A stretch of 64,000 bases of DNA from Verrucomicrobiia bacterium. GTDB taxonomy: Bacteria; Verrucomicrobiota; Verrucomicrobiia; Limisphaerales; UBA1319. The notes beneath the pieces are model-generated. The model was not told the origin of the DNA. It made no database searches and saw only the letters and a list, made by a program, of their open reading frames with translations. The DNA is taken from contig OY760937.1 in assembly GCA_963664225.1 (NCBI GenBank), positions 4,192,001 through 4,256,000 on the forward strand, read 5' to 3'. Positions 17,644 to 55,623 of the stretch are shown here, piece after piece. Numbering within the stretch: position 1 is the first letter of the stretch; each line of letters starts with the position of its first letter. Made by a program: the position numbers and the translations under genes.

Positions 17644-17689
17644 GTCACCAGTACTGGTGACTGGTGGGGACACGGAATTCGGGTACTCT
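17644..17689 (+). promoter_or_regulatory. Palindromic operator plus -10 box of repeated ncRNA, copy 1
   Basis: GTCACCAGTACTGGTGAC at 17644-17661, 22 nt spacer, TACTCT at 17684-17689. Confidence 0.7.
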
Positions 17690-17694
17690 GATCC

Positions 17695-17870
17695 CATAAC
17701 TGATCGGTGCAGTTATGCAGAGTTTGTTTGCCGTGTGTGTTTTTAGGGCGTATGTCTGCAGCGCCCGCACTGATCGACGATTTTAGATAACTTAGCGGTT
17801 ATCAATGTGTTAAAGTAAGTTCTCATTACTTTATTTCCGTAAAAAGGCCGGGTTTACACCCGGCCTTTTT
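17695..17870 (+). ncRNA. Candidate structured small RNA, copy 1 (family not recognised)
   Basis: Near-identical to two other copies; four hairpins plus terminator 17841-17870; no conserved ORF. Confidence 0.7.
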
Positions 17871-17907
17871 GTTTTCTCCCACGGTATGGAATCATTAACC
17901 CATCCGT

Positions 17908-18969
17908 TTATCGTTTGTGGATTTCAATGTGGCCCGCGCTGGTTCTTAGCTCCAGTCGCGGGCCACCCCCGTTGATCTTCCCACGCAGGGCCGACCGGTT
18001 TTGTTGGCCCACGGTGGTCACGGGAATTTGTGTGCTGACCCCTCCGGCGGAAGTTTGGGCGTCCAAATCAAGCGCCCAGGAAGGATCCAGGGTGACATCG
18101 ATACCTCCGGCGGAGGTTTGGAGCGCACATTCTCCGGTCGGAGCCTCCGAGAATTCAGCCGAAATGGAACCGCCTGAGGTTTGCGCATGCACCAACCCGC
18201 CTACGCGGTGGAGATTAACGGATCCGCCCGCCGTTCTGGCTTCGAGACCGTTCCGAACCCCATCCACGCGAATGCTTCCTCCCGAGGTGCGGACATTCAC
18301 CTTGCCGCCGGACTCACCGACCTGGATCGAGCCGCCCGCAGTATTCGCTTCCACACTTCCCGTGGCTCCGTCGATATCGATGCTTCCACCGGAGGTCTGG
18401 GCGTGGGCGTCACCGGTGATTTTGCCAAAGTTGATCGATCCCCCAGCCGTCTGCGCGCGGGCGTTTCCTTTAATTGCGGCAACAGAGATGCTGCCGCCGG
18501 CGGTCTTCACATCGACATTAAATTCACTGGGTATGCTGATGGTATAGCGCACCTGAATCTGGCGCTTGAACGACCACCATGGACCGTTGTTTTCCCGCGG
18601 ACCTTTTGCCTTGATGGTCAACGTGTTGCCATCCTGATCGAAGGTGATTTTATGCGCGTTAAAGGACTCCCCGGCTTCAACGGCACTGGAGGCTTCCTTC
18701 TTGCGCTCGACCTCCACGCGGATCGACTCTTGAGTGGAACTCTTGATGTCAATGGAACCCCGGTCCACGTCCATGATCAACGTGCCGGCCGGTTTTACAT
18801 CGAAGGTTTTGACTATCTTATCTTTAAATTCCTCGCCAGATGTCGCCAGGGCAAGCATGGGGATGGTCAGCGCGCAGGCCAGACGAAGCCGCAAGTTTGG
18901 GCTGCGGAATGAATTCACCAAGCCAGGACGGATTGTCGAGTTCCGAAGGGTATCAATGTCGTTTCGCAT
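17908..18969 (-). CDS. DUF4097 beta-strand repeat protein
   Basis: Repeated T(A/S)GGSI units; signal peptide. Confidence 0.85.
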   Translation of the reverse strand: MRNDIDTLRNSTIRPGLVNSFRSPNLRLRLACALTIPMLALATSGEEFKDKIVKTFDVKPAGTLIMDVDRGSIDIKSSTQESIRVEVERKKEASSAVEAGESFNAHKITFDQDGNTLTIKAKGPRENNGPWWSFKRQIQVRYTISIPSEFNVDVKTAGGSISVAAIKGNARAQTAGGSINFGKITGDAHAQTSGGSIDIDGATGSVEANTAGGSIQVGESGGKVNVRTSGGSIRVDGVRNGLEARTAGGSVNLHRVGGLVHAQTSGGSISAEFSEAPTGECALQTSAGGIDVTLDPSWALDLDAQTSAGGVSTQIPVTTVGQQNRSALRGKINGGGPRLELRTSAGHIEIHKR

Positions 18970-19052
18970 GGTTTAATAACCCGTGGAGACGATCTTTGTT
19001 TCAAAAATCGCGAAGAATTCTGGCAGGGTTCTGAACCCAAAAAGTCCAGGCA

Positions 19053-19439
19053 CTACAAATCGCGAGCATGGATCGCATCCAGCCAGTGGCTTAGGGGATG
19101 GCGATGAGAGCTGACCCAGCGGTAAATCATTGCCGCCAAGGGCAGCATACCGGGCAGGAAAAGCGCCAGAGTGGGAAGCGCCACCAGAGGCAGGCGCAGG
19201 CCCATAAAACGAAAAGCCTCCGCGCCGTTGTAAACGCGTCCGTCTGCGGTCAAAACATGGAGCGCAGCCTGAAGATCTTTTCCGCGAAGAGCTTCCGGCA
19301 AAGAGGGATCGAAGGATTGTGTGACGGGCACGGGCGAAAAACAATCAAACCAATCCAGCCTTCTCAGAAGGCGCATCTGACTAACACACAATCCGCAAGT
19401 ACCGTCATAATATACTGAATGTTTCGCACTCGCACCCAT
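19053..19439 (-). CDS. DUF393/DCC-family thiol-disulfide oxidoreductase
   Basis: VYYDGTCGLC; GAEAF; YRWVSSHR. Confidence 0.85.
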   Translation of the reverse strand: MGASAKHSVYYDGTCGLCVSQMRLLRRLDWFDCFSPVPVTQSFDPSLPEALRGKDLQAALHVLTADGRVYNGAEAFRFMGLRLPLVALPTLALFLPGMLPLAAMIYRWVSSHRHPLSHWLDAIHARDL

Positions 19440-19506
19440 CACGCCCCAATATAGCCCACAAACGGCAAATTGAAACCGGGGTATATACCCCATTTATCAA
19501 GTGTAC

Positions 19507-19542
19507 AAAAAAAACACCGCCGGACAATGCCAGCGGTGTTTT
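19507..19542 (-). terminator. Intrinsic terminator after the epimerase gene
   Basis: AAAACACCGC...GCGGTGTTTT stem with an A8 tract (U-tract on the minus strand). Confidence 0.65.
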
Positions 19543-19563
19543 GAATTCTGAGCGAGCAGGGCC

Positions 19564-20400
19564 TTAGCTCTTCTTCTTGAGCAAACCCTTGAGGTGTTTG
19601 ATCGAACGCTCCGCCTGCTCGATGGTTCCGCATTCCACGGAGAACACGATGTCCCGTTCGCAGGTGCGGCATACCTCGATGACTTTTTGCCAATCGATCA
19701 CGCCGTCGCCACAGGCGCAGCCAACGGGCGTTCCCGTCACCTTGCCGCGTTCCGCGCCGGATTGCTCGATGGAAATGTCCTTGGCGTGGAGATGCACAAG
19801 GCGGTTCTTCACGCGCTTGAGCCAGATGATCGGGTCCTGGCCAGAAAGGTAGCTGTTGCCGGTGTCGAAATTGACACCGATCGAGGGGCTTTTGACCAGA
19901 TTGACAATCCGGTCCAGACCCTCGGGCGTCTTGCTGTATTGCTGGTGCGGCTCAATACCGATCAGGATCTTGCGCGGTTCGGCCACCAGCGCCGCCTCCT
20001 GGAGGGTGTATTTCATCAGGGTGAAATCCTCCTCCACGGTGGTCCATTTTTGCTTGGGACCCTCGTCTGTATTGACCACCGGCGCGCCGCATTCCGCGGC
20101 AAACCGGATGGCCTGCTTGAGATATTCCACCCCAATCTCCGGCTTGGTCAGCGGTGTGTGCGCCGAAAGCCCCGAGAGTTTGACCCCGGCCTTTTTACAG
20201 GCGCGCTGAATGCGCAACGGGTCGTCGAGCATCGAAACGCTGTGGAAATAGCCCGCTTCACTGAGCAATTCCCGACCCCAGTGAACCATGGGTTCCACAT
20301 GGGTGTAGCCCAGTTCCGCAGCCTTCTCCACGGCCCACTCCATCGACTTGTCGTGGTGCCGGACGTATTCGAGGTTTATACCGAGGTGGATTTTGCCCAT
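19564..20400 (-). CDS. Sugar phosphate isomerase/epimerase (AP endonuclease 2 TIM barrel)
   Basis: IGIEPH, VNFDTGN, HLHAKD, GDGVIDW, SVE motifs. Confidence 0.9.
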   Translation of the reverse strand: MGKIHLGINLEYVRHHDKSMEWAVEKAAELGYTHVEPMVHWGRELLSEAGYFHSVSMLDDPLRIQRACKKAGVKLSGLSAHTPLTKPEIGVEYLKQAIRFAAECGAPVVNTDEGPKQKWTTVEEDFTLMKYTLQEAALVAEPRKILIGIEPHQQYSKTPEGLDRIVNLVKSPSIGVNFDTGNSYLSGQDPIIWLKRVKNRLVHLHAKDISIEQSGAERGKVTGTPVGCACGDGVIDWQKVIEVCRTCERDIVFSVECGTIEQAERSIKHLKGLLKKKS

Positions 20401-20412
20401 AAGAACCTCGCG

Positions 20413-21150
20413 TTATTCCACTTTGCCGGTGGCGGCCCATTGGCAGCCGTTGACGATCAATTTGGCGACGGACGGGTTCGTGATGGCCTTGCCATCATGA
20501 CCAAAGCATTCATGGAACACGCGACCCTGGCCGTAATTGAATGTGAACGCCAGCGGCTCGGTCTTATTGCTAAAGTCGGATTCGGCAGTCACCAGGACAT
20601 TGATGGGCGCATCACCCTGCAACTTGGCGTAGAGTTCATCGTCCTCTTCGAAATCAGACATTCCCTTGGTGATCGCATTATCCTTGTCGGCGATTTTCAC
20701 CGTGAAGACCTTGCGCGCGTTGTGGCCGGACTTGCCCATCACCCAATAACGGCCGCACAGATTCTTGAATTCATCCCACTCCTTGTAGGAGGCGCTGGCC
20801 AGGTGCGAAACGGCAAAGCCCTTGCCGCTCTTTACAAAGGTGATCAGGTTTTCCTTGGCGGCATCCGAGATCGTGGGGGTGCTGGCGTTGAAGGAAGTCA
20901 GAAAAACGATGTCGTAGCGTTTGAGGGAGCTGGCGGAATCCAAAATACCGGCATCCTCGCAGACCTTCACATCGAATTTGCCGGAGGCCACCAGCACGTC
21001 CTTGGTGGCCTGAGACATTTCCTGCCATTTATGGACGCCGACGTCGTCGCCGGTGATCAGCAGGACTTTGATTTTGGGGGCGTCCGCCGCTTGAGCGACA
21101 CAGGCGGTCATGAGAGCGGCGCTGAACAGGCCAATGATGGTTTTATACAT
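20413..21150 (-). CDS. Secreted ThuA-like domain protein
   Basis: GKGFAVSH, DELY, YGQGRVFHECFGHD, NGCQWA; signal peptide. Confidence 0.85.
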   Translation of the reverse strand: MYKTIIGLFSAALMTACVAQAADAPKIKVLLITGDDVGVHKWQEMSQATKDVLVASGKFDVKVCEDAGILDSASSLKRYDIVFLTSFNASTPTISDAAKENLITFVKSGKGFAVSHLASASYKEWDEFKNLCGRYWVMGKSGHNARKVFTVKIADKDNAITKGMSDFEEDDELYAKLQGDAPINVLVTAESDFSNKTEPLAFTFNYGQGRVFHECFGHDGKAITNPSVAKLIVNGCQWAATGKVE

Positions 21151-21203
21151 ACTTTTATTTGGGTGGTGCGGCATGGCCGCGGTTATTCACTGAGAAAGAA
21201 TCG

Positions 21204-21590: not shown

Positions 21591-21739
21591 AAAAGTTTTC
21601 AGGAGATTTTGGGTTAATGTTTTAGTGAAGCGCAACATAGGGGAATTTCGCACCGCTGGCAAGCAAATTGCCGGTTCCAAAAATCTGCAACCATCGCTTG
21701 CATTATTCCACCATCATGCGAAAAATAGGCCTGCATCGT

Positions 21740-21817
21740 CGGAGCGTAGCTCAGCCTGGCTAGAGCACTTGGTTTGGGACCAAGACGTCGCAGGTTCAAA
21801 TCCTGTCGCTCCGACCA
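21740..21817 (+). tRNA. tRNA-Pro (TGG)
   Basis: CGGAGCG acceptor stem, anticodon arm CTTGG-TTTGGGA-CCAAG, GGTTCAAATCC T-loop, encoded CCA. Confidence 0.97.
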
Positions 21818-21871
21818 TTTCCCCCTCCATCCCGCTTGTCGAATGGCCAGGCTGCCCTTATGCTCCGGGGC

Positions 21872-22555: not shown

Positions 22556-22559
22556 CCCC

Positions 22560-26596: not shown

Positions 26597-26858
26597 GTCG
26601 CGCCCATCATCCTAAGCCCAGCCCCGCACCCTTGGCAACGGCAGAACGCAGGTGGAAAATGAGCCTGAACGACGTTTGTTTTTGGGATGGAAGGGCAGGA
26701 TCGACCATTGGATTACCGGATTTGGTCAACGCCGCTGGCATTGGCGGGTGTAATAACACGACTTTGCTGGCCGAACATCAGGATTGGGAATAACCCCTTT
26801 CTCCACTTACGACTTTACGGCTTGCAATCTGGTGCCTATGTGACACTAAATGTTCATC

Positions 26859-29800
26859 ATGAACAGAATATCCGCGGTTATTCTGCGGCCTATCGCTCCG
26901 CTGGGCTGCCTTGATAAATTCCGATCCCCTGCAGTCTCTGGCTGGTTCGCATTCGCAATGCTGTTTGTGTTGGCAGGGTTGCTCACATCGGGGAGGGCTG
27001 ACACGCTTGGCGATTTCACCTGCTCGACAGACTCCTCATCCGCCACCATCACTGGCTACACCGGACCCGGCGGCGATGTTGTCATTCCGGACACCATTCT
27101 GAACAAACCCGTTTTTGCCATCGGGACCAATGCGTTCAAGGGTTGCATCAGCCTGACGAATGTCACATTACCCAACCAGGTCCGCAGGATCCAGGATTCA
27201 GCATTTGCAGGATGCACCGGACTGACGAGCATCACGATCCCCAACACCGTCTCCCAGATTGAAATTGCGGCATTCAGTAATTGCTCGAATCTGACAAGTG
27301 TCTATTTCGATGGGAACGCACCCACGCAACTCTATTCGAGCACTCCGTTTGCCAACTCGGATCTGGTGACCGTTTATTATTACGCTCGAATGACCGGTTG
27401 GAAATCGACTTACGGCGGCCGACCGACAGCGACGCGGATTGATCCCAATGCCAGCGATTACCAAATCATGCCAGTGGCTTCATTCAAGGCCAGCATAACC
27501 AGTTACACGGGTTCCAACTCAGTCGTGACGATCCCGAATACCATCAACGGCATGACGATCATCGGAATTGGAGACGAGGCCTTCTATATGCGCGCTCTAT
27601 TGAAAAGCGTCATAATTCCTCCCGGAGTCACGGCCATTGGGGTCAGGGCGTTTGCCGGATGCAGCGGATTGACGAACCTTTCCATTCCCAACAGTGTGGC
27701 CAGAATTGGAAATGAGGCTTTCTCGGGATGCCAAGGCCTTAAGGAAGTAACGATGCCCAGCAACCTTGCCAGCATCCCTGAACTTACATTCGAAAATTGC
27801 CGGGGTCTGGGGAGCATTGTCATTCCCAATAGAGTGACGAATATTGCGAACTGGGCCTTCATAAATTGCATTGGCATTACCAATGTCACCATCCCTGACA
27901 GCGTCATCGAAATCGCAGGTGCCGCCTTCGAAAACTGCAGCGGTCTGACCAGCATCACGATTCCAAGCAGCATCACCAGCATCAGGAATTCCACATTCTA
28001 TCAATGTACAGGACTGACCAATGCCATACTCCCTGGCAGTGTTACCAACATTCAAACTTATGCTTTTTATGGGTGCAGGAATCTGACCAGTCTCACAATT
28101 CCAAACAGTGTCACCAGTATTGGTAATTCTGCCTTTTTTGGCTGCAGCAGTCTGACATCGTTGGCGATTCCAGATGGCGTTACAACCATCGAGAATTACG
28201 CGTTCAGTGGCTGTTCTGGCATGACGAATATCACCATTCCCAACAGCGTGACGAATATCGGTATTGAAGCGCTCAAGCAAAATCGCAATCTCATGCACAT
28301 TGTCATCCCCAGCAACGTCGTTGCCATCGGTGCTGGTGCGTTCTCTGGATGTGCGAGTCTGACGAGCATTGCTCTATCCGGGAATATCGCCGAAATCGGA
28401 GCAGGGGCCTTTGAGGATTGCAGTAGTCTGGGAACGATTGCGGTGCACACGAACAATGCAGCGTTCAGCAGCTTGGAGGGCGCATTATTCAACAAGAATC
28501 AGACAATTCTTATTCGAGGCCCGGGAGGCTCGACTGGAACCTATGCGATACCAGGCAGCGTCACCAATATAGCGGCTTATGCGTTCTCAGGTTGCACCGG
28601 CCTGACTAATATTACCATTCCCACAAGCGTGACGAGCATTGGTAATAACGCGTTCAAAGGATGCACTGGCCTGGGTGGCGTTGACATTCCCAATAGCGTA
28701 ACGAGCATTGGGTCTGGCGCTTTCGAAGACTGCACAGGCTTGACGAGCATCGCCATCCCCGACAGTGTCACCAGCATCAGTGTGAACGCATTCTGGAATT
28801 GCACCAACCTGACCGCAATCAGTGTGGGTGATCTCAATACAAATTACGCCAGCATCGATGGCGTGGTGTTCAATAAAGATACGACGACATTGATTGAGTA
28901 TCCACCAGGCAGGATTGGCGATTACATTATTCCCAATGGTGTCACCAGCGTTGGCTCTCTCGCATTTGGCTCTTGCGGAGTTTTGACAAGCGTCATCATT
29001 CCTGAAAGTGTCGTCAAAATCCCGTCGTCAGCATTTTCTAGATGCACCGGGCTGACGGCAATCAATGTGGATCCACACAATCCCGCTTATTCCAGCATTG
29101 ATGGTGTGCTATTCGATAAAACCATGACAACGCTCATTCAATACCCACCCGGCAGGCATGGCCGCTATATTGTCCCAAACGGTGTGACCAACCTTGGGAA
29201 TGATGCTTTCAATTATTGTATTAACCTGACGAGCATCGGCATTCCCGAAAGCGTCCGTGGGATGGGATATTTTGTGTTTGCATATTGCGCCGGCTTGACG
29301 AGCGTCACTCTTCCCAATGGCATCACCAACATCGGACATTATGCATTCACGCAATGCACGGCTTTGACTAACATCACGATTCCCAAAAGTGTTACGTCCA
29401 TTGGGATATATGCCTTCTCTGGTAGCACTGCCCTGACGGACGTTTATTTTGAAGGTAAGCCGCCACAATCACCCCCAATATTGCTGTTCGAGAACGTACC
29501 CAACGTAACAGTGTATTACCGCGGTGGAACGACCGGCTGGGAACCAGCTTTAGAAAATCAACCGACCGCCCTATGGATCGAATCGGCTCCCTATCTGGCA
29601 TGGGCGCAGGCGGCAGGGTTGCTAAGGAAGTTCCCCAAGGCCAGCGCGGAAACTGACGATGCCGATCAGGACGGCATGAGCAACCTGGCCGAGATGCAGG
29701 CGGGCACCGATCCCACCATGGCAACGTCGGCATTGATATTTGATCGCGCACCCCGATTCGCTGACCTGACCGACGATGACAAAACCGCAGTCGGATCCGA

Positions 29801-29978
29801 CCAACACGCGCTGTATTTCCAATCCGTGCCTGGCAAACAATACAAGATCGAAAGCGTGAGCGCATTCGGTGTTACGTGGCAGACAGAAAACGCCGTCACC
29901 GCCACGACTTCTCAAAAGCGTGTTCTCGTCACAAAACCGCTCGATCAGCGATTTTATCGCGTGGCTCTGGTGCCATAG
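26859..29978 (+). CDS. BspA-type leucine-rich repeat (LRR_5) exported protein, paralogue 1
   Basis: Many LTSITIPNSVTSIGxxAFxGC repeats; start chosen to match the MNRI of its paralogues. Confidence 0.9.
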   Translation: MNRISAVILRPIAPLGCLDKFRSPAVSGWFAFAMLFVLAGLLTSGRADTLGDFTCSTDSSSATITGYTGPGGDVVIPDTILNKPVFAIGTNAFKGCISLTNVTLPNQVRRIQDSAFAGCTGLTSITIPNTVSQIEIAAFSNCSNLTSVYFDGNAPTQLYSSTPFANSDLVTVYYYARMTGWKSTYGGRPTATRIDPNASDYQIMPVASFKASITSYTGSNSVVTIPNTINGMTIIGIGDEAFYMRALLKSVIIPPGVTAIGVRAFAGCSGLTNLSIPNSVARIGNEAFSGCQGLKEVTMPSNLASIPELTFENCRGLGSIVIPNRVTNIANWAFINCIGITNVTIPDSVIEIAGAAFENCSGLTSITIPSSITSIRNSTFYQCTGLTNAILPGSVTNIQTYAFYGCRNLTSLTIPNSVTSIGNSAFFGCSSLTSLAIPDGVTTIENYAFSGCSGMTNITIPNSVTNIGIEALKQNRNLMHIVIPSNVVAIGAGAFSGCASLTSIALSGNIAEIGAGAFEDCSSLGTIAVHTNNAAFSSLEGALFNKNQTILIRGPGGSTGTYAIPGSVTNIAAYAFSGCTGLTNITIPTSVTSIGNNAFKGCTGLGGVDIPNSVTSIGSGAFEDCTGLTSIAIPDSVTSISVNAFWNCTNLTAISVGDLNTNYASIDGVVFNKDTTTLIEYPPGRIGDYIIPNGVTSVGSLAFGSCGVLTSVIIPESVVKIPSSAFSRCTGLTAINVDPHNPAYSSIDGVLFDKTMTTLIQYPPGRHGRYIVPNGVTNLGNDAFNYCINLTSIGIPESVRGMGYFVFAYCAGLTSVTLPNGITNIGHYAFTQCTALTNITIPKSVTSIGIYAFSGSTALTDVYFEGKPPQSPPILLFENVPNVTVYYRGGTTGWEPALENQPTALWIESAPYLAWAQAAGLLRKFPKASAETDDADQDGMSNLAEMQAGTDPTMATSALIFDRAPRFADLTDDDKTAVGSDQHALYFQSVPGKQYKIESVSAFGVTWQTENAVTATTSQKRVLVTKPLDQRFYRVALVP

Positions 29979-30098
29979 AGCGCTGCACATGATGCCGTGG
30001 AGGTAAACTGATGGTCGCCGCCACGGAGAAATGGTATTCCAATTACATCCCTGCTTACTGCTTGCAATCGGGTTGCCAGGTGATATTAACTGTTTGTC

Positions 30099-32834
30099 AT
30101 GAACAGAATATCCATGGTTATTCTGCGGATTGTTTCATGTTCGGATTCCTTTCAGAACACCTGGCACTCCTCGGGTTCGCGATGGAGCTTCCTCACAATA
30201 TGTTTTGCCTTATCGGGATTTGTTTCCACAGGGAAGGCTGAGTGGCAGGGCGATTACGGGTATTCAACAAACGGCCCGACTGTGGCCATTGTGGATTACG
30301 CCGGTCGTGGTGGCAATATTATCGTTCCAAACACCATCCTGGGTAAACAAGTCACCAGCATCGGAGATAATGCGTTCTCCAAACGTTGCAGCCTGACCAG
30401 TATTTCAATCCCAGAAGGTGTTACCAACATCGGGAATTATGCGTTTTCTGGCTGCACCGGTCTGACAAATATTACAATTCCCAACAGCGTCAGCCGCATT
30501 GGGATTTACGCATTCTACAACTGCCACGGTCTGGCAGAAGTCGCAATTCCAAACAACGTCACGGCCATCAGGGATTCTGCATTTTTCGGGTGTGCCGGCC
30601 TGACGAATGTTACGATTCCCAGCGCCGTCACCGCCATTGAGAGGCAGGCATTCTCAGGCTGCAGCAGACTGACGAATATTGCGATACCCACCAATGTCAT
30701 CAGGATCGGAGATTCAGCGTTCAATTACTGCGTTGGCCTCCAAGATATAACGATTCCAAGTAAAGTCGGCATCATCTATTCCTTTGCATTTGCCGGCTGC
30801 ACTGGCCTGACCAATGTTGCAATCTCGAATAGCGCCGCAATCATCTTGTCTTCGGCGTTTACTGGCTGTACCGGCCTGACGGGGTTCACCGTCCCCGCCG
30901 GTGCCTTCACCATTGATTATGGCACATTCTCTGATTGCACCGGTTTGATGAGCGTCGTGATTCCAGACAGCGTCACCAACATCGGGAACCTGGCTTTCTC
31001 TGGTTGCTCCAGCCTGACGAATATTACATTACCCGGCAAGGTGACCGCCATTGGATGGAACGCATTTGCTGCATGCACCAATTTAAGGAACATCACGATT
31101 CCCAACAGCGTCACCAAAATTGCGGATTATGCGTTCATGAACTGCACCAATTTGACAGACTTCATGATTCCCGACAGCGTTACCGCCATTGGGAATGCTA
31201 CGTTTTCTGGCTGCAGTGGTCTGACCGGCATCGACATCCCAAAAGGAGTCACCAGCATCGGGGACGGGACGTTCACAGGTTGTATCGGTCTGACCGACTT
31301 TACGCTCTCCAGCAACGTCACCAGTGTCGGATCCATGACGTTTGCGGGTTGCACCGGATTGACGGCCATTGCAGTGGACGCTCTCAACAGGTATTTTGCC
31401 AGTGTGGACGGCATATTGTTCTCCAGGAACCACACAAAACTCATACAGTTCCCAGCGGGCAGGATTGGGAGCTACGCAATTTCCAATGGCGTCACAGTCC
31501 TGGCAAACGGTGCTTTCAATGGGTGCTCGTATCTGACGGACATCACGATTCCAGCCAGCGTCAGTCTTATTGAGGACTCCGCACTCGCGAACTGCCACAG
31601 TCTGACCAATATCACAGTGGATAACCTCAATCCAATCTATGCCAGCGTGGATGGTGCCCTTTTAAGCAAAGACCTGACACTCCTCATTCAATGTCCAAAC
31701 GGAAAAATCGGGAGTTACGAGATTCCCTCCAGCGTCACCAGCATCGCATTTAATGCGTTTGCCGGTTGCAACCTCCTCACGAATGTCACGATCTCCAGCG
31801 GCAATATTCGGATCGGTTATGCCGGTTTTTTGGAATGCACAGGTTTAACCAGCATCTCAGTGGATCCACTCAACTCGGACTTCACCAGTGTCGATGGTGT
31901 ATTGTTCTCCAAAAATCCGCTAATGCTGATTCAATATCCAAGAGGAAGGAATGGCGGTTACGTGGTCCCCGACAATGTCGTTCGCATCGGCGATAAAGCG
32001 TTCTACAACTGTGTTGGTTTGACGGAAATCACGATTTCCACCAACGTCGCCTGGATTGGGGATTGGTCGTTCGCGGGCTGCACAGGCCTGACAAATGTGA
32101 TCATTCCAAATGGCACAAGCCTGATCGGCGAATCCGCGTTTAGGGCATGCACGAATCTGAAGGGCATCACGATTCCCAACAGCGTCGCTACCATCGGAAA
32201 TAACGCGTTCGATGGCTGCATCAGCCTGACCAACATTACGTTCCCCAACAGTATCCGCGACTTCGGATTTTTGGTTTTCAATGATTGCAGCAATTTGACT
32301 TCCGTAATATTTGAGGGCAATGCCCCCACGCCTGATCCATATTACCTGATGGATGCTGGCAAGGATGTGCCGATTTATTACCGCATTGGAACCACTGGCT
32401 GGAACACTACTTTTGCAGGTCAACCGACCGCAATATCGAGGCCCTCTTATCAGGAGTGGGCAGGGATCATGGGTCTGCTGGAAAAATTCCCAGATGCAAG
32501 TGCCGGGAGTGACGATCCTGATCACGACGGAATGCGCAATCTCCAGGAATGGCAGGCAGCCACAGACCCCACAGATTCAAGTTCAGCTCTGAAGTTTGAG
32601 AGCGAGCCGCGTCCTGATAGCCTGGCCGACACCGATAAAACCGACGTTGGACCTGACCAACATGCCTTGTATCTTCAGACCGTGCCGGGCAACAAATACA
32701 AATTGGAAAGCGTTTCCGCGTTTCATGACGCATGGCAGACAGAAACCGCCGTCACCGCCACGACCTCTCAAAAGCGTGTTCTCGTCACAAAACCGCTCGA
32801 TCAGCGTTTCTATCGCGTGGTCTTGGTGCCATAG
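30099..32834 (+). CDS. BspA-type LRR_5 exported protein, paralogue 2
   Basis: Same repeats and conserved C-terminal domain. Confidence 0.9.
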   Translation: MNRISMVILRIVSCSDSFQNTWHSSGSRWSFLTICFALSGFVSTGKAEWQGDYGYSTNGPTVAIVDYAGRGGNIIVPNTILGKQVTSIGDNAFSKRCSLTSISIPEGVTNIGNYAFSGCTGLTNITIPNSVSRIGIYAFYNCHGLAEVAIPNNVTAIRDSAFFGCAGLTNVTIPSAVTAIERQAFSGCSRLTNIAIPTNVIRIGDSAFNYCVGLQDITIPSKVGIIYSFAFAGCTGLTNVAISNSAAIILSSAFTGCTGLTGFTVPAGAFTIDYGTFSDCTGLMSVVIPDSVTNIGNLAFSGCSSLTNITLPGKVTAIGWNAFAACTNLRNITIPNSVTKIADYAFMNCTNLTDFMIPDSVTAIGNATFSGCSGLTGIDIPKGVTSIGDGTFTGCIGLTDFTLSSNVTSVGSMTFAGCTGLTAIAVDALNRYFASVDGILFSRNHTKLIQFPAGRIGSYAISNGVTVLANGAFNGCSYLTDITIPASVSLIEDSALANCHSLTNITVDNLNPIYASVDGALLSKDLTLLIQCPNGKIGSYEIPSSVTSIAFNAFAGCNLLTNVTISSGNIRIGYAGFLECTGLTSISVDPLNSDFTSVDGVLFSKNPLMLIQYPRGRNGGYVVPDNVVRIGDKAFYNCVGLTEITISTNVAWIGDWSFAGCTGLTNVIIPNGTSLIGESAFRACTNLKGITIPNSVATIGNNAFDGCISLTNITFPNSIRDFGFLVFNDCSNLTSVIFEGNAPTPDPYYLMDAGKDVPIYYRIGTTGWNTTFAGQPTAISRPSYQEWAGIMGLLEKFPDASAGSDDPDHDGMRNLQEWQAATDPTDSSSALKFESEPRPDSLADTDKTDVGPDQHALYLQTVPGNKYKLESVSAFHDAWQTETAVTATTSQKRVLVTKPLDQRFYRVVLVP

Positions 32835-38632: not shown

Positions 38633-38742
38633 GTTGGAGCGCAGTCGGAGGTTGGTATGATATCGCGCAGTTGCCGCTGGCAGATGGGATTATTCACTTT
38701 ACGGCTTGCTTTCGGTTTTCCATGCAGCATTACTTATTCAAT

Positions 38743-40641
38743 ATGAACAGGATACGCACGATTATTTTGACGATTCATTTACGAGCGGGTTACCTGCAAA
38801 TAAACAATGTCTCGATGATTTTGAGAACATGCGTTTTATCAGTATTCCTAGTATTATCAGGTTTGTTGACAATAGGTTACGCAGAAACATATGGAGATTA
38901 CACCTACTCGACAGACGGTGTATCTATTTCAATTGACGCATATAACGGGTTAGATGGCATTGTTATCATTCCGGATACCATTGAAGGCAAACCAGTCACC
39001 AGGATAAGTTATTTGGCCTCCATTGTTCCCGCCCGCCTGAAGAGTGTCTTTATCCCTGCCACAGTCACGAGCATCGGGGATTATGTGTTTTGGAACTGTA
39101 GTAATCTGATCGATATTAATGTAGATAAACGGAACACGACCTACAGCACTACGAACGGTGTGTTATTCAACAAGGGCATGACAATGCTCCTCCGGTGTCC
39201 TGGGGGAAAAACTGGAAGCTTCTTGATCCCCAATAACGTCACCGGCATTATGGATAATGCATTCCTTTTTTGCAGCGGGCTGACAAACATAATCATCCCA
39301 AGTGGCGTTTCCAGTATCGGATCCGCGGCTTTTGCCAACTGCACTGGCCTCACGGATATTACGATTCCCACTAACATAACGATCATCGAAGGTTCGGTGT
39401 TCTCTGGCTGCGGTGGTCTGACCAATGTTGTTTTCGGCAACAGCATCACCAACATCGGAATCGGCGCCTTCTATGACTGTACCAACCTGACGAGCATAAC
39501 GATCCCCAAAAGCGTGACGAGTATCGCGCTCTATGCTTTCATTCGCTGCACCGGCCTTAGGAATGTTACGTTTACCAACGGAATCACAAGTATTGGTGAT
39601 TCGGCGTTTGCCGGGTGTGCCGCTCTGACGAATATCACCTTGCCCGACGGGTTTACCAGTATCGGATCTGGGACATTCGATGGTTGCAGAGGACTTGAGA
39701 TGGTCAATCTCCCAAACAGCGTCACCAACATCGATAGCAGAGCATTCCTTGGCTGCAGCAGCCTGACGAGCATTACGATCCCTAACAACATCGCAATCCT
39801 CAATTCTTCGGTGTTCATGAACTGTAAAGGTTTAATTAGTGTTACGATTCCAAACAGCGTTGGTGTCGTTGGAGACGAGGCTTTCTCTGGCTGCACTCTC
39901 CTAGAGAGCGTCACGATCCCTAACGCTAACATTTGGAGAAGGACGTTTTTTAATTGCACCAACCTCACCAAGGTTGCAATCGGTCATGGCGGACGACTGA
40001 TCTATGATGAGGCTTTCGCAGGTTGCAATAGCCTGGTAAGCATCACCATCCCCGGCAATATCACGTGGATCGGAGAGCAGGCATTCTCTGGCTGCACCAG
40101 CCTGGCCAATGTGTTATTTGAGGGCAATGCGCCAACACATGCTCCCGATAACGTTTTCAATTATACCACTAATGTGACCGTTTATTACCGCGCGGGAACC
40201 ATTGGCTGGGGCACTGTTTTTGCAGGTCGTCCGACAGCGTTATGGCAACCTTCCTATCAGGAATGGGCGCAAACGTCCGGTTTGCTGGAGAAGTTTCCCG
40301 ACGCCAGCAGAGAAACCGACGATGCCGACCACGATGGCCTGAACAACCTGGCGGAAATGCAGGCGGGCTCCGATCCCACCAAGGCGGATTCAGCGTTGAA
40401 ATTTGAAGGCGCGCCTCTGCTTGAGAATCTGGCGGAAGAGGACAAGACCGCCATCGGCACCGATCAACACGCCCTGTATTTCCAAACCGTGCCGGGAAAA
40501 AAATACGAAATCCAGAGCACGACCGCTCTCAGTGGAACATGGCAAACCGAAACGAACGTCAGCGCCACGACCACCCAAAAGCGCGTTCTGGTCAATAAAC
40601 CGGCCAATCAGGAATTCTATCGCGTGGTCCTGGTGCCATAG
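38743..40641 (+). CDS. BspA-type LRR_5 exported protein, paralogue 3
   Basis: LRR_5 repeats plus shared C-terminus ending FYRVVLVP. Confidence 0.9.
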   Translation: MNRIRTIILTIHLRAGYLQINNVSMILRTCVLSVFLVLSGLLTIGYAETYGDYTYSTDGVSISIDAYNGLDGIVIIPDTIEGKPVTRISYLASIVPARLKSVFIPATVTSIGDYVFWNCSNLIDINVDKRNTTYSTTNGVLFNKGMTMLLRCPGGKTGSFLIPNNVTGIMDNAFLFCSGLTNIIIPSGVSSIGSAAFANCTGLTDITIPTNITIIEGSVFSGCGGLTNVVFGNSITNIGIGAFYDCTNLTSITIPKSVTSIALYAFIRCTGLRNVTFTNGITSIGDSAFAGCAALTNITLPDGFTSIGSGTFDGCRGLEMVNLPNSVTNIDSRAFLGCSSLTSITIPNNIAILNSSVFMNCKGLISVTIPNSVGVVGDEAFSGCTLLESVTIPNANIWRRTFFNCTNLTKVAIGHGGRLIYDEAFAGCNSLVSITIPGNITWIGEQAFSGCTSLANVLFEGNAPTHAPDNVFNYTTNVTVYYRAGTIGWGTVFAGRPTALWQPSYQEWAQTSGLLEKFPDASRETDDADHDGLNNLAEMQAGSDPTKADSALKFEGAPLLENLAEEDKTAIGTDQHALYFQTVPGKKYEIQSTTALSGTWQTETNVSATTTQKRVLVNKPANQEFYRVVLVP

Positions 40642-50451: not shown

Positions 50452-50484
50452 CGTGGCCTCTTCCTTTAAAAACCGGTGGGGGGT

Positions 50485-51111: not shown

Positions 51112-51183
51112 GTGGAGTCCCAGCTTATCAAACACCACTCAATCAATAAGTTGCGCGCGACATCCAACCCTTGAATCGAATTC

Positions 51184-52713
51184 TCAAGGCGTCGCTGCCA
51201 TGACCCGATCACGGTCGATGCCATAGCGCTGCATCACACGCCGGGTCGCCGCCTCCATTTCACCGGCGTCGAGCACGAGTCTGTGAACGGCTTCGCCGGG
51301 AGCGAATTCGACTTCGTGGAAGCCGTTGATCGGTTTGGTCAGGGCATCGGCCAGTTGGCGCAAATTGCTGATGGGCTGGCCATTGACTTTGTCGAGCACC
51401 ATGAACCGGTAATCCTGATAGCCCATGTTGTAGGCATCGGGCAGAACGATGGACAGGAGCACCCGGCTGGGATAGGTGGCGCTGGGCTTGTCCTGGTCAT
51501 AATAGGTCAGACGGAACGGGGCTTTGCGCCGCCATTCCGCTCCCCAGTTATGCAAGTAGGGTCCGGTCAAGGGCTGGAACGTCAGTCCTCCCGCCATGAG
51601 GTATTCCGGGGCCTGATCGAAGACCTGCTCGGCAATCAATTCCCGCGAATAATTGACCTTGGGCAGGGGATAGGTGATGTCTTTGTATTGACCGTTGCGC
51701 CAGACCTTGAGTGACAAATTATCACCCGCCCATTTGTTCCGCGTGGACAGGTTTTCCAGCGATAAGTGGCCATAGGCGGGATCGCTGTAGTCTCCATCGG
51801 TATCGATGGGGAAGTCCCCGATTTGAACCAGGACATCGTGGGTTTGAAGCAGCGCGTTTGTGCCGTCAATGCCCACGAATTCGTTCAGGATCACCCCCTT
51901 GGGTTCGCCCGGGAGTTTCAGGTAATTCAGGGTGGCGGGATTCTCGGCTTTTTGCCACACGAAATCGAAAAAGCCCAGGCCCGCGTAGTTTCCTTTTCCT
52001 TTTTGCGCGCCATCGACGATGAACCGGATGAAAGGGGCGGGGATGACCTGCGTGGTCTTGGAATCCTGAGAGCAGGTCAGACCGTGGAGCATGCCCTCGC
52101 CGATCACCGCCTCGGACCAGCCGGCGCCGTCGATCTCGGAGTCGAGCGAGGCCTGGAAATACTCCAGAAAGCTCAGTTTGGAGCGTTGGACGGAGAGACG
52201 GCTGATTTCTGCCTTGCGGATTTCGCGGTTGCCATTGCGCCAGCGCACCACTTGAACGCTGCCTTCTGCGGGGAACCGGTCCGAAAGCAGGGCGGGCTTC
52301 AAACCATTCCAGAATCCGGCATCCTCGGTCGTGATCAAGGCAAGGTTGGCGTGGTAATCGATCCATTGCAAACGCGCGGTGACCCACAATCCGCGACCCC
52401 CTTTTTGCAGGCGGATGAGCGTCGCATCGTTCAGATATTCGGCCGTGGTGAGAATTTGCCGGGGCGCGATGACCACACCGCTTTTCTCGTTGTTTTCCGT
52501 GCGCACAGCCCACGGCTGAAAATAATCGTATTGCTTGTGAGAAACGTCGATCGTCACCAGCGAGTTTTCCCAAAACGAGGCCGCTCCCGGTCCTGCCGCG
52601 CGGGCCGCGGTGGTATCGGCGCCTGAAACGCCATTTGCGACCAGGCAGAACGTCAGCAGACAAACCGTTCGAAGCGAAGCGGCGGTTTGAATTAAGGTGT
52701 GATGGGCTTTCAT
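51184..52713 (-). CDS. Deg/HtrA-like PDZ protein, probably catalytically inactive
   Basis: Same layout as its neighbour but TTAEY/ANLA/GWSEA replace TNAHV/CDL/GNSGG; ATGA overlap. Confidence 0.75.
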   Translation of the reverse strand: MKAHHTLIQTAASLRTVCLLTFCLVANGVSGADTTAARAAGPGAASFWENSLVTIDVSHKQYDYFQPWAVRTENNEKSGVVIAPRQILTTAEYLNDATLIRLQKGGRGLWVTARLQWIDYHANLALITTEDAGFWNGLKPALLSDRFPAEGSVQVVRWRNGNREIRKAEISRLSVQRSKLSFLEYFQASLDSEIDGAGWSEAVIGEGMLHGLTCSQDSKTTQVIPAPFIRFIVDGAQKGKGNYAGLGFFDFVWQKAENPATLNYLKLPGEPKGVILNEFVGIDGTNALLQTHDVLVQIGDFPIDTDGDYSDPAYGHLSLENLSTRNKWAGDNLSLKVWRNGQYKDITYPLPKVNYSRELIAEQVFDQAPEYLMAGGLTFQPLTGPYLHNWGAEWRRKAPFRLTYYDQDKPSATYPSRVLLSIVLPDAYNMGYQDYRFMVLDKVNGQPISNLRQLADALTKPINGFHEVEFAPGEAVHRLVLDAGEMEAATRRVMQRYGIDRDRVMAATP

Positions 52714-54158
52714 AGTCTGCGGTCCTTGGCAATGCCGTAGGTTTTCAAAATGGACTCGTTGGCCTCTTTGGACTCGGCCCGGTTCAGGCATTCCAGGAGG
52801 CGGAAGGAAACAAACTCGATCACGTCCTGGGCGCCGTTGTCTTTTTCAAACGCGGCAATGACGTCTTCGAGCTTGTTGATGCGCACGCCGTTGATCTTAT
52901 CCACCAGGGCGTGTCCGCGCAGTTCGAGGTTGGCGTTCACAGGATCGGCCAGCACCGCCGCCAGAACGACCGGTTCTGTGCGCGCTGTATCAGGAAACTC
53001 CTGTTTGCGATAATAAAGCTCGTAAATGAGTTCGCTGCCGCTGCCCTCGGGGAAATTTGGGGCGGAGGCGCGCAGATAATCCCGGCTGAGCGGCGTGAAA
53101 ACCAGCCCCGCATGCACATAATAGCGGGGCAGTTCATACAAATTGCCTTCGGCCCGATCATCCGTGGGGACTTTGGCGGTCAGGTTGACGGTCTGAGCGG
53201 CTCCCGCGCGCCAGATTTTCAAAGGCACACTTTCACCCGCCTGCACCTCGCTGAAGGCGCCCGCGACATGAATACGATTGCCTTGATACATGATCGATCC
53301 ATCACTGCCCACGGCATACGGGCCCACTTGCATGAGGACATCGTCTTCCTGCAAAACATCCTTCGCGGGTGAGAACGGGGTGATCTTATCGATGCGCGCG
53401 CCCACGTTATCGTCGGGGATCTTCAGATATTTGCGAAAGGCCGGATTTTGCAGCGGCGACACGCGAACGCCCGCCATCGGGAATCCTTCGTAACGGCCAT
53501 TTTCAATGTCCTTGAGAAAGTGCTGGATCACAGGCGGAGGGATGAAAAAACCGGTGTTCTCCAGGCCGGACATGCCTTGAAAAGATACGCCCGCCACTTT
53601 GTCATCCTGAATCACGGGACCGCCACTGTTGCCCGGGTTGATGGCAGCGTCGGTCTGGACGGCCAGAAAGTTTCGGTTCCCAATATGCACGTAGGTTTGC
53701 AGCTCGATGCGGGAAACCACACCGCGCGTATAGGAGATTTGTTCGCCGCCTGCGGGGTAACCATACGTGACTACCGCAGAACGCACTTTGGCCAGTTCGC
53801 CAATATCCAAAGGCTCGAGTCCGTCAAAAAAAGTTTCGTCCTCGACTTCGAGAATAGACAGGTCGCAGTCATGTCCGATGAACGCCACGCGCGCCAGGTA
53901 GGGCCGGGGATCCTGATATTTATGCACCAGGACTTGTTTGGCCCAACTGACGACGTGGGCGTTGGTCATGATGCGTTTGCCGCGAATCACAAAGCCCGAT
54001 CCGGAGGCTTTGCGCACCGGCTCGAACCGCCACGGGGCGTCCCAGACCGGTTGCTGGCTGAAGGTGGTGATGCGGATGACCGATTTCTCAGGCTCGGCAG
54101 CCGGACTGGCGGCGGCGATGGCCAGCAGGAATAAAATGGAGGCGATGAATGGTCTCAC
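52710..54158 (-). CDS. Deg/HtrA trypsin-like serine protease with PDZ domains
   Basis: TNAHVV, DCDLS, DAAINPGNSGGP; signal peptide. Confidence 0.92.
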   Translation of the reverse strand: MRPFIASILFLLAIAAASPAAEPEKSVIRITTFSQQPVWDAPWRFEPVRKASGSGFVIRGKRIMTNAHVVSWAKQVLVHKYQDPRPYLARVAFIGHDCDLSILEVEDETFFDGLEPLDIGELAKVRSAVVTYGYPAGGEQISYTRGVVSRIELQTYVHIGNRNFLAVQTDAAINPGNSGGPVIQDDKVAGVSFQGMSGLENTGFFIPPPVIQHFLKDIENGRYEGFPMAGVRVSPLQNPAFRKYLKIPDDNVGARIDKITPFSPAKDVLQEDDVLMQVGPYAVGSDGSIMYQGNRIHVAGAFSEVQAGESVPLKIWRAGAAQTVNLTAKVPTDDRAEGNLYELPRYYVHAGLVFTPLSRDYLRASAPNFPEGSGSELIYELYYRKQEFPDTARTEPVVLAAVLADPVNANLELRGHALVDKINGVRINKLEDVIAAFEKDNGAQDVIEFVSFRLLECLNRAESKEANESILKTYGIAKDRRL

Positions 54159-54367
54159 AAAGCAAAAATGGTAATACGGGCCGTTCGCGTCAAGTCTCGA
54201 TATGATCGGTAAATCCCAAAAATCCGCAGATGGGAATCAAGCCGCGAGTGAATAGGCCCTAGCGCAATAATGCTCAGAAGGCTGGTCGAACAGGGCAGGG
54301 GGATGAAAGCCATAGGCTGTTGACCACGTTTTGCACGCCTTGGCGTGGATTTATTGCGATTCCAGTG

Positions 54368-54547
54368 AAAAAAAAGAAGGCCGGGGATAAATCCGGCCTT
54401 CTTACGGAAATAAAGTAATGAGAACTTACTTTAACACATTGATAACCGCTAAGTTATCTAAAATCGTCTATCAGTGCGGGTGCTGCAGACAGACACCCAA
54501 AAACACACGGTAAAACAAACTCTGCATAACTGCACCGATCAGTTATG
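54368..54547 (-). ncRNA. Candidate structured small RNA, copy 2
   Basis: Reverse complement of copy 1 with the same hairpins and a U-tailed terminator. Confidence 0.7.
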
Positions 54548-54552
54548 GGATC

Positions 54553-54598
54553 AGGATACCCGAATTCTGAGTCCCCACCAGTCACCAGTACTGGTGAC
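54553..54598 (-). promoter_or_regulatory. Operator plus -10 box, copy 2
   Basis: Palindrome at 54581-54598, 22 nt spacer, TATCCT (54558-54553). Confidence 0.7.
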
Positions 54599-54629
54599 AC
54601 GCCGTCCCCAGTGTAACCATCCTGGTAAT

Positions 54630-55256
54630 TTACTGCTTCAGGAACTTGGCGACGGCTTCGGTGCGGGTGCGGACCTGCAGTTTCTCGTAAATGCGGCGGA
54701 TGTAGGTGTGAACGGTTTCGTAGCTGATGCCGAGTTTCTCGGCGATTTCCTTGTAGAGAAAACCCTTCGCCAGGCAGTCCAGGACTTCCTGTTCGCGCGT
54801 GGACAGGTTCTCGGAGGGCTGCGGCGAGGAGCCGATTCGCTGGAAGGATTGCACGACCTTGCGGGCGATGTGTGTGGTCATGGGGGATCCGCCTTTTTGA
54901 ACTTCCTTGATTCCCGCAAGCAATTCCGGGGTTGTCGTTCGCTTGAGCAGATAGCCCGAGGCCCCGGCGGTCAGGGCGTTGAAGATGTTCTCGGTATCTT
55001 CATACACGGTGAGCATGAGGATCTGGATTTGCGGGGCCACCTGTTTCAACTTCTTCACGCATTCCACGCCGTTCATGCCCGGGAGGTTGATGTCCATGAG
55101 GACGACATCGGGTTTCACACGCGGCAGCTCATCGAGCGCGGCCTCGGCATTGGCATACTGGTGGGTGCATTGGAAGCCCTCGGAGCGATCGATCACCTTG
55201 GCGAGGGTGGTGCGCACCAGATTGCTATCTTCCACAATGGCAACTTGAATTGGCAT
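54630..55256 (-). CDS. NarL/LuxR-family DNA-binding response regulator
   Basis: REC (VED, DVVLMDINLPGMNG, GYLLK) plus LuxR HTH LSTREQEVL...YKEIAEKLGIS. Confidence 0.95.
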   Translation of the reverse strand: MPIQVAIVEDSNLVRTTLAKVIDRSEGFQCTHQYANAEAALDELPRVKPDVVLMDINLPGMNGVECVKKLKQVAPQIQILMLTVYEDTENIFNALTAGASGYLLKRTTTPELLAGIKEVQKGGSPMTTHIARKVVQSFQRIGSSPQPSENLSTREQEVLDCLAKGFLYKEIAEKLGISYETVHTYIRRIYEKLQVRTRTEAVAKFLKQ

Positions 55257-55391
55257 TTCCTATCGACAACCCTGACAGAAAAAAAGACCCCGTGCCAGCC
55301 CAATCGTTCAGCCGTGCGCACGACAAAAATCTTTTGATGCCCACCGCCCTCCGCTCTTTGCCCTCTGCCTTTTTCAATCTTCCGTGCGTAC

Positions 55392-55572
55392 AAAAAAAAA
55401 GAAGGCCGGGGATAAATCCGGCCTTTTTACGGAAATAAAGTAATGAGAACTTACTTTAACACATCGATAACCACCAAGTTATCTAAAATCGTCGATCAGT
55501 GCGGGTGCTGCAGACATACACCCTAAAATCACACGGTAAACAAACTCTGCATAACTGCACCGATCAGTTATG
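55392..55572 (-). ncRNA. Candidate structured small RNA, copy 3
   Basis: Third copy with stems preserved and P3 loop changed. Confidence 0.7.
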
Positions 55573-55577
55573 GGATC

Positions 55578-55623
55578 AAGATAGCGGTTTCTGGATTCCC
55601 CACCAGTCACCAGTACTGGTGAC
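55578..55623 (-). promoter_or_regulatory. Operator plus -10 box, copy 3
   Basis: Palindrome at 55606-55623, 22 nt diverged spacer, TATCTT (55583-55578). Confidence 0.7.

Follow-up and report, generated by a model that had tools for sequence, protein, structure and literature searches.

What are the three closely similar elements, each approximately 230 base pairs (bp) long, that occur in one 64,000-nucleotide (nt) stretch of a Verrucomicrobiia genome (Limisphaerales, UBA1319; GenBank assembly GCA_963664225.1, contig OY760937.1, positions 4,192,001 to 4,256,000; hereafter the window), how might they be controlled, and on what might they act? An earlier note on this DNA had proposed an unrecognized, structured, multicopy regulatory RNA with its own promoter and terminator. 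Here, we have compared the three copies with one another, with homologous loci in other genomes and with known RNA families. The comparison indicates that they are small RNA (sRNA) genes of a family spread through Verrucomicrobiota, which probably form a multicopy, trans-acting regulon under the control of a two-component system, with transcription, regulator binding and targets all predicted from sequence.

The three copies of the shared unit lie at the places given by the earlier note (Table 1), as found by alignment, and the same copy pairs were recovered independently by a repeat search of the window. They are 93.1, 89.7 and 93.0% identical in pairwise comparisons over the unit, and their aligned flanks bear no relation to one another. 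Each unit begins with an invariant CGTGTCACCAGTACTGGTGACTGGTGGGGA block, which holds a perfect 18-bp palindrome (GTCACCAGTACTGGTGAC), and continues with approximately 13 nt of variable sequence, a -10 box and a long RNA body that is mostly invariant among the copies and ends in a GC-rich hairpin and a T-run. When folding was compared with that of shuffled sequences, z was -5.56 for the RNA of copy 1 and -4.81 for that of copy 2. The exact palindrome occurs in the window at the three sRNA genes only, i.e., three times compared to 0.02 expected for sites with up to three mismatches. A fourth, palindrome-like site at 28110 (three mismatches) was rejected as unrelated, being a chance near-match produced by the repeats of a BspA-type leucine-rich-repeat (LRR) coding sequence. 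No further copy was detected in the window by the long-form covariance model R1 described below, a regular expression combining GTTCTC with a terminator, or a short-form nhmmer profile. The three copies arose by duplication, and copies 2 and 3 flank a response-regulator gene, copy 3 lying directly upstream and copy 2 directly downstream of it. When all 4227 models of Rfam 15 were searched at gathering scores, a single tRNA at 21740 was the only match in the window and two tRNAs were the only matches in 20 family loci, so that the family is still to be regarded as not recognized.

The distribution of the element was examined by scanning the exact palindrome against 185,579 species genomes (596e9 bases; the source genome is not among them). 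This yielded 82 sites, compared to approximately 9 by chance (estimated as 596e9 / 4^18), and 70 of these, in at least 41 assemblies, each have the family layout on one side, namely the palindrome, a TAnnnT -10 box at a fixed distance, an RNA of 70-185 nt and an intrinsic terminator. The other 12 sites, which have no family RNA and are found in assemblies labelled as Actinomycetes, three Saccharibacteria, Brevibacillus, Lachnospiraceae, an archaeon, two Alphaproteobacteria and a Planctomycete, fit the chance expectation. Thirty-four of the at least 41 assemblies are labelled as Verrucomicrobiota lineages (Pedosphaera, Limisphaerales, subdivision 3 and Verrucomicrobiia). Seven assemblies with 1-5 family sRNA genes each carry the labels of other phyla (Saccharimonadales, Binatia, Acidoferrum, Bifidobacteriaceae, Limnocylindria, Baltobacteraceae and Limnocylindrales), which are suspected to be wrong labels or to reflect mis-binned contigs. 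Several assemblies have 3 to 5 palindrome-sRNA sites each, and exact-match counts underestimate the copies per genome, as illustrated by a further family sRNA in one locus (L018, 4145-4294) that stands behind a one-mismatch palindrome, GTCACCAGAACTGGTGAC. Each copy is, on this evidence, an independent and presumably transcribed gene of a family spread through Verrucomicrobiota of soil and fresh water. No conserved open reading frame (ORF) was found in the family RNAs, in agreement with the earlier note: an ATG recurs in 27 of 45 long-form RNAs and is absent from the other 18, and the peptides it opens range from 5 to 39 residues and differ in frame and length. With a predicted promoter of its own, an intrinsic terminator and a noncoding body, each gene has the appearance of a trans-acting sRNA gene. 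Thus, a structured, noncoding, multicopy sRNA can be retained from the original proposal on the strength of 70 homologous genes and covarying helices, whereas its regulatory function is a prediction.

The structure of the RNA was derived from 44 aligned long-form sequences, from which the covariance model R1 was built; R1 has 45 matches above 66 bits, 44 of them distinct, with the three window copies included. The test was performed on a model-based alignment (A4) that was fitted to the long-range helix H1, to stem S2 and to the terminator, not to stem S1. S1 and S2 form an H-type pseudoknot that is enclosed by H1, and this long-form domain is supported by covariation: 89.6% of 1301 cells pair in A4, compared to 35-53% with partners displaced by 1-3 columns, both-side changes are seen in 19 of 30 pairs, and 106 cells have such a change vs 40 in shuffles (none of 500 shuffles was as high, in a control that ignores phylogeny). 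Representative pairs are 29-77 of S1 (AU 34, GC 10, unpaired 0), 65-85 of S2 (GC 31, AU 8, CG 1, UA 1) and 18-89 of H1 (UA 28, GC 7, plus others), and the terminator helix is 97% paired across the family, with both-side changes in 8 of its 9 pairs. An unfitted MAFFT alignment gave the same picture (87.5% of cells paired, 87 cells with a both-side change), the minimum free energy fold of the copy 1 RNA forms both H1 and S1, and frequent G.U pairs fix the transcribed strand. A local hairpin, UGCA/UGCA, was considered and rejected; although 87% of its cells pair, no both-side change is seen and shuffles do better, and S1 is therefore preferred. The pseudoknot loops CCGUGUGUG and UGUCUGCGG are near-invariant.

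All four stems that the earlier note had listed for copy 1 are present where it had placed them, and the family comparison sorts them differently. Its P2 is S2, and the change from GGGCG/CGCCC in copy 1 to GGGTG/CACCC in copies 2 and 3 is real in the alignment, counting as one event since it is common to the latter two; the terminator bases also change in step between copies, as had been claimed. In contrast, P1 (CATAACTG/CAGTTATG, 17695-17717) does not hold as a family helix, with 56.5% of its cells pairing and 138 of 500 shuffles as high, and its segment instead supplies the 5′ strands of H1 and S1, which had been missed. P3, the linker UUUCCGU and the stem of P4 are specific to the lineage of the window genome in the alignments, P3 being an insert in a variable linker that is gapped or different in 41 long-form homologues, whereas the P4 loop GUUCUCA is near-invariant in the family. 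Covarying helices, by pair counts, were seen in 44 long forms and 18 short forms.

Two short motifs are shared by nearly all members, i.e., GUUCUC (68 of 73 family RNAs vs 3.0 in shuffles) and GUGUG (71 of 73 vs 15.6). The RNAs occur in a long form of approximately 120-185 nt, to which the window copies belong, a short form of approximately 70-75 nt and a few intermediate forms. In the short form (18 sequences), a covarying hairpin (95% paired, both-side changes in 4 of 7 pairs) presents GUUCUC in its loop and is followed by GUGUGUGAAAAGG and the terminator. Window copies and short form alike have GUUCUCA in a hairpin loop, and in most long forms the alignment shows GUUCUC as single-stranded, with a small covarying hairpin before it and the terminator after it. 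In five assemblies, a syntenic position next to a divergent proteasome-family gene is taken by the long, the short or an intermediate form, and the three thus look like variants of one gene family.

The promoter region was profiled with 71 family sites anchored on the palindrome. In 67 of the 71 sites, TAnnnT occupies positions +23 to +28 counted from the palindrome (T.94, A.96, T.96), a G is present at the -14 position in 79% of the sites, the bases directly after the palindrome read TGGCGGG (55-100% per position), and the transcript probably starts at a conserved CGT (+34 to +36). Among the three window copies, the spacer between the -35 position and the -10 box is the most variable stretch of the unit. 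The starts that the earlier note had placed near 17696, 54546 and 55571 are exactly where the conserved -10 box would put them, and the palindrome would then be centred at -43.5, abutting a poor -35 hexamer. Activator-dependent promoters commonly look like this, with a weak -35 hexamer beside a palindrome of the size that a dimer would bind, and the conserved 18-bp block ahead of the RNA is most simply understood as a putative regulator site. A sigma-70 consensus scan found a promoter at none of the three copies, which is in keeping with activator dependence. The earlier comparison with regulator-dependent sRNA sets is borne out to the extent that this promoter layout is common to 70 homologous genes.

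In 16 of 70 sites, a second conserved block, CTGnGTTTGnnAAnTATATAATCCCG-N8-T, lies approximately 45 nt upstream of the palindrome. A reading of this block as a forward promoter that transcribes the palindrome (TTGACA-17-TCAATA, TATAAT) was rejected, as it reads better on the opposite strand as a near-consensus divergent promoter, GTGACA-16-TATAnT, with a -35 that overlaps the palindrome. Five of the loci (L012, L014, L037, L055 and L057) have a homologous divergent proteasome-family (PF00227) gene that begins approximately 55 nt away, as against eleven in which the block is unexplained.

A candidate for the protein that binds the palindrome is encoded between copies 3 and 2. The gene product combines a receiver domain with a GerE helix-turn-helix, has the phospho-acceptor Asp (D55, invariant in six orthologues) and is accordingly of the NarL/FixJ type, while it falls below every NCBIfam equivalog cutoff (best MctR, 144.3 vs 300). 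The six orthologues are 71-80% identical overall and almost invariant in the helix-turn-helix (residues 154-206), which fits an invariant DNA site. In five other loci, an orthologue (71-80% identity) precedes a family sRNA in the same orientation, with 40-160 nt between the end of its gene and the sRNA; four of these loci (L001, L003, L007 and L008) have the order kinase, regulator, sRNA, and in the fifth (L004), with regulator and then sRNA, the contig ends inside the regulator gene. The four kinases, of at least 738 residues with Reg_prop repeats, Y_Y_Y, HisKA_3 and HATPase_c domains, directly precede the regulator. An orthologous kinase of the same architecture, 56-58% identical to them, is present in the window 7 kb from the regulator gene, the two being separated by an IS66 element, an AAA ATPase gene, an oxidoreductase gene and sRNA copy 3. 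Given the order in the other genomes and these intervening genes, the ancestral kinase-regulator-sRNA order is, by gene-order comparison, broken in the window and the sRNA duplicated around the regulator; no second sRNA copy was found upstream of the regulator in the five syntenic loci.

Several observations on the surroundings of these genes may be added. Two tandem genes for HtrA-like serine proteases (Trypsin_2 and PDZ_3 domains; 51184-54158, minus strand) lie directly downstream of copy 2, and stress-related genes also follow some regulator-linked copies elsewhere, with an HtrA-like, trypsin-like protease in L004, a YflT-like protein in L008 and an extracytoplasmic function sigma factor in L007, and this points, if weakly, to envelope or protein-quality stress. 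Two direct copies of a 39-nt GC-rich element (61953-62042), 77% alike and 51 nt apart, follow shortly after the kinase gene, in the place that the regulator gene takes in other genomes.

Taken together, the reading that we consider the most probable is a two-component-controlled regulon of trans-acting sRNAs. An extracytoplasmic signal would be sensed by the Reg_prop/Y_Y_Y histidine kinase, which would phosphorylate the NarL-type regulator; a regulator dimer might then bind the palindrome near -43.5, next to the poor -35 hexamer, and activate all copies together, and the sRNAs would act on other transcripts via the exposed GUUCUC(A), perhaps with GUGUG. Sensors of the Reg_prop/Y_Y_Y type are known from glycan-sensing hybrid systems of Bacteroides.

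A number of points weigh against this proposal. Start site and promoter are predicted from conservation alone, and binding of the regulator to the palindrome is suggested by synteny only; the regulator gene is adjacent in only 5 of the at least 41 other assemblies, which may reflect short contigs and exact-match sampling, and another DNA-binding protein could be the true palindrome binder. Since the divergent promoter overlaps the palindrome in 16 of 70 sites, the site is not purely an sRNA activator site, and a site abutting the -35 position could equally serve a repressor. As for the structure, the outer half of H1 is less regular (pairing in approximately 60-85% of sequences), the fitting of A4 to the model favours nested helices in the pair counts, and plain base-pairing sRNAs do not usually have a conserved pseudoknot whose loops are conserved too, a feature that may point to protein or ligand binding. 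With regard to targets, the seed complement TGAGAAC shows no enrichment in the window (10 sites vs 6.4 expected, with the copies themselves accounting for 3 of the 10), the longer complement TGAGAACA occurs once vs 1.5 expected, and none of the hits placed against ORFs (26122, 38822 and 53370) lies at a plausible start.

Two alternatives deserve to be weighed against base pairing under an activator, both of which we regard as unlikely. First, the RNA may be a sponge or sensor that acts by titration, with the 5′ domain, GUGUG and GUUCUC serving as protein- or ligand-binding sites or as an aptamer. The covarying pseudoknot stems with their near-invariant loops would fit such a role, as would the lack of any complementary target seen in the window, and multicopy genes behind a NarL-type regulator site recall the GacA-Rsm system (PMC2375449). 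However, the short form dispenses with the entire 5′ domain and keeps the promoter, GUUCUC, GUGUG and terminator, long and short forms swap beside the same divergent proteasome-family gene, each motif is present once or twice per RNA, unlike in many-repeat sponge RNAs, and no partner protein is consistently encoded nearby.

Second, the palindrome may be the operator of a repressor, or the site of a regulator other than the neighbouring NarL-type protein, such that the sRNAs would be derepressed rather than activated; this has a similarly small chance of being correct. It would account for a site that abuts the -35 position, for the 16 loci in which the outer bases of the palindrome form the -35 (GTGACA) of a strong-looking divergent promoter that a bound protein could occlude, and for a NarL-type gene adjacent in only five other assemblies. 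Nevertheless, the sRNA promoters combine a poor -35 (TGGCGG) with an extended -10 that is only partial, which is usual for activator-dependent promoters, the kinase-regulator-sRNA order is conserved, the helix-turn-helix is almost invariant, and dimers of the GerE/LuxR type typically bind perfect palindromes of 18-20 bp.

A cis-acting leader or riboswitch with a regulated terminator is very improbable. Copies 2 and 3 do lie upstream of same-strand genes (for an HtrA-like protease and the regulator, respectively), and the 5′ domain resembles an aptamer, but copy 1 faces a convergent gene, and among 68 loci, with ORFs called by a crude program, 28 have their downstream ORF in the same orientation as the sRNA, 35 have a convergent one and 5 have none; the 35 convergent cases among the 63 loci with such an ORF exclude a leader. 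Furthermore, a consistent same-strand downstream gene of related function is not found, the neighbouring gene families being unrelated across loci (121 flanking ORFs belong to widely differing Pfam families), a conserved alternative antiterminator pairing is not present, and the short form lacks the aptamer-like domain. A mobile repeat, be it a miniature inverted-repeat transposable element or a repetitive extragenic palindromic-like sequence, or a small protein gene can be dismissed as hardly credible: several copies per genome and one copy beside an IS66-disrupted region might suggest the former, but the unit has no terminal inverted repeats or target-site duplications and a palindrome at one end only, there are 3 copies in 64 kb rather than many near-identical ones, homologues diverge yet keep their base pairs and occupy syntenic places, and the inconsistent peptides opened by the recurring ATG speak against the latter.

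The regulon proposed here would have several implications. No description of the family, its palindrome or any Verrucomicrobiota sRNA family was found in Rfam 15 or in full-text searches of a literature that left out approximately 1.7 million PubMed Central articles and the subscription journals; hence, this is apparently an undescribed regulator-dependent multicopy sRNA family in a phylum for which no described sRNA family was found, and whose members break down polysaccharides and abound in soil, peat and fresh water. With an exact DNA site that marks member genes, a candidate kinase and regulator, a covariation-supported pseudoknot and a 6-7 nt candidate seed, the regulon is open to study, and direct tests of regulator binding, signal and targets become possible; with the covariance model, family genes can also be annotated in metagenome-assembled genomes. 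A more far-reaching version, which we hold to be quite doubtful, is that the kinase and NarL-type regulator directly control little else than the sRNA genes, of which a genome has up to at least five, and that in the long form the pseudoknot adds to the seed a sensor domain for a protein or small molecule. If this were true, one RNA would integrate transcriptional and post-transcriptional signals, the phylum would have gained its first defined sRNA regulon, and a trans-acting sRNA would be seen to carry an aptamer-like module within it.

Features of the element and of the linked two-component system are listed in Table 1. Elsewhere in the window, the tRNA gene at 21740-21814 (plus strand, 64.6 bits) has an anticodon loop read as UGG (Pro). 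The gene convergent with copy 1 (17908-18969, minus strand) encodes a DUF4097 'toastrack' protein with a weak match to the LiaG family (48.9 bits vs a cutoff of 285), a family linked to cell-envelope stress modules in Firmicutes. Three large paralogous BspA-type LRR genes (26850-29978, approximately 30055-32750 and approximately 38699-40550) are built of 69-nt (23-residue) repeats and have 5′ regions (74 nt at 26815, 30055 and 38699) and 3′ regions that are conserved among them.

Table 1. Coordinates of the sRNA genes, their promoters and structural elements and the linked genes in the window; the last two rows list loci in other genomes (L numbers).
Feature	Position	Strand	Basis or detail
Shared unit, copy 1	17642-17875	+	Alignment; CGTGTCACC... 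to terminator T-run
Palindrome GTCACCAGTACTGGTGAC, copy 1	17644-17661		18 bp, perfect; putative response-regulator site, -52 to -35 from predicted start
Core promoter, copy 1 (predicted)	17662-17689	+	Weak hexamer TGGTGG at -35 position, 17662-17667; -10 TACTCT, 17684-17689
sRNA, copy 1	17696-17875	+	About 180 nt, predicted start; R1 match 17692-17872, 87.2 bits, E 1.9e-18
Pseudoknotted 5′ domain, copy 1	17701-17776	+	Covariation
H1, long-range helix, copy 1	17701-17710 with 17767-17776	+	UGAUCGGUGC with GCACUGAUCG
S1, copy 1	17716-17721 with 17755-17760	+	UGCAGA with UCUGCA
Conserved loop CCGUGUGUG, copy 1	17731-17739	+	Within 5′ domain
S2 (P2), copy 1	17746-17750 with 17762-17766	+	GGGCG with CGCCC
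P3 hairpin, copy 1	17786-17803	+	GATAAC/GTTATC; lineage-specific insert in variable linker
P4 hairpin, copy 1	17811-17833	+	GUUCUCA 17819-17825 in loop, candidate seed
Intrinsic terminator, copy 1	17841-17875	+	Fold and sequence
Shared unit, copy 2	54600-54368	-	Alignment
Promoter, copy 2 (predicted)	54547-54598	-	Palindrome 54581-54598; -10 TATCCT, 54553-54558
sRNA, copy 2	54368-54546	-	R1 match 54372-54550, 66.7 bits; GUUCUCA 54419-54425; terminator stem 54374-54403
NarL/FixJ-type response regulator, candidate palindrome binder	54630-55256	-	Pfam Response_reg 2.5e-27, GerE 3.5e-18
Shared unit, copy 3	55625-55392	-	Alignment
Promoter, copy 3 (predicted)	55572-55623	-	Palindrome 55606-55623; -10 TATCTT, 55578-55583
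sRNA, copy 3	55392-55571	-	R1 match 55397-55575, 72.0 bits; GUUCUCA 55444-55450; terminator stem 55402-55425
AAA_15/AAA_21 ATPase gene	57408-58421		Pfam
IS66-family insertion sequence	58348-60924		42-nt terminal inverted repeats, 58348-58389 and 60883-60924
TnpB_IS66 gene	58564-59088		Pfam
DDE_Tnp_IS66 transposase gene	59155-60804		Pfam
Sensor histidine kinase, presumed partner	62271-63998	-	Pfam Reg_prop, Y_Y_Y, HisKA_3, HATPase_c; cut by window end
Loci with the upstream block			L012, L014, L015 (3377), L019, L024, L028, L030, L037, L042, L055, L057, L062, L063, L064, L069, L073
Loci in assemblies labelled as other phyla			L015/L016, L041, L065; L018, L031; L017; L026, L039, L040, L048, L070; L058; L063, L064; L068

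How does the family compare with known multicopy or regulator-dependent sRNAs? On the proposed reading it operates in the manner of CiaR-csRNA or GacA-Rsm, yet it falls within neither. In permissive Rfam scans of the three copies, the best score was that of SorY (26.8 bits vs 111), and all hits were centred on the terminator. The Qrr sRNAs of Vibrio are likewise multicopy, with one promoter type, one invariant single-stranded motif and a phosphorelay regulator (here a predicted one). Qrr genes use sigma-54 with LuxO, whereas the family promoter profile is TAnnnT without GG-N10-GC spacing, and the Qrr model (RF00378) does not match the copies. RprA of enterobacteria, which is controlled by RcsB, resembles the family in that the site of a NarL-family regulator lies directly upstream of the -35 of the sRNA gene, and differs in being single-copy and of unrelated sequence, with no Rfam match to the copies.

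The GacA site lies far upstream of the promoter, whereas the family palindrome adjoins the -35 position. In other respects, the RsmX/Y/Z and CsrB/C genes under GacA/UvrY are alike in having a NarL/FixJ-family regulator, a palindromic upstream sequence and several sRNA genes (PMC2375449). According to the same source, several unpaired GGA motifs are required for the sequestration of RsmA by an Rsm RNA; compared to the several GGA/ANGGA motifs of Rsm and Csr RNAs, the window RNAs have 0, 1 and 1 GGA (copies 1, 2 and 3), the single one lying inside the terminator stem, so that the earlier view of copy 1 as not CsrB-like, for want of any GGA, stands. No Rfam Rsm or Csr model matches the copies, and the window regulator scores 125.6 bits against the UvrY/SirA/GacA equivalog NF007018, below its cutoff of 280.

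The CiaR-dependent small RNAs (csRNAs; RF02379) of streptococci belong to another phylum and have no pseudoknot domain, unlike the family described here. CiaR is an OmpR-type regulator that recognizes the direct repeat TTTAAG-N5-TTTAAG, which was not found upstream of the copies, whereas the family has an 18-bp inverted repeat, putatively bound by a NarL-type regulator; the csRNA model gave 25.1 bits on the copies vs a gathering score of 57, mainly from the terminator. In PMC3091779, csRNA genes are described as paralogous genes, each defined by a regulator site that is followed at a set distance by a -10 box and, within approximately 250 nt, by a terminator, with RNA bodies that diverge around a short shared motif. 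As far as that description goes, the two families are built alike, both having several paralogous sRNA genes per genome, each with a regulator site, a -10 box at a fixed distance from it, a terminator and a short motif common to all members.

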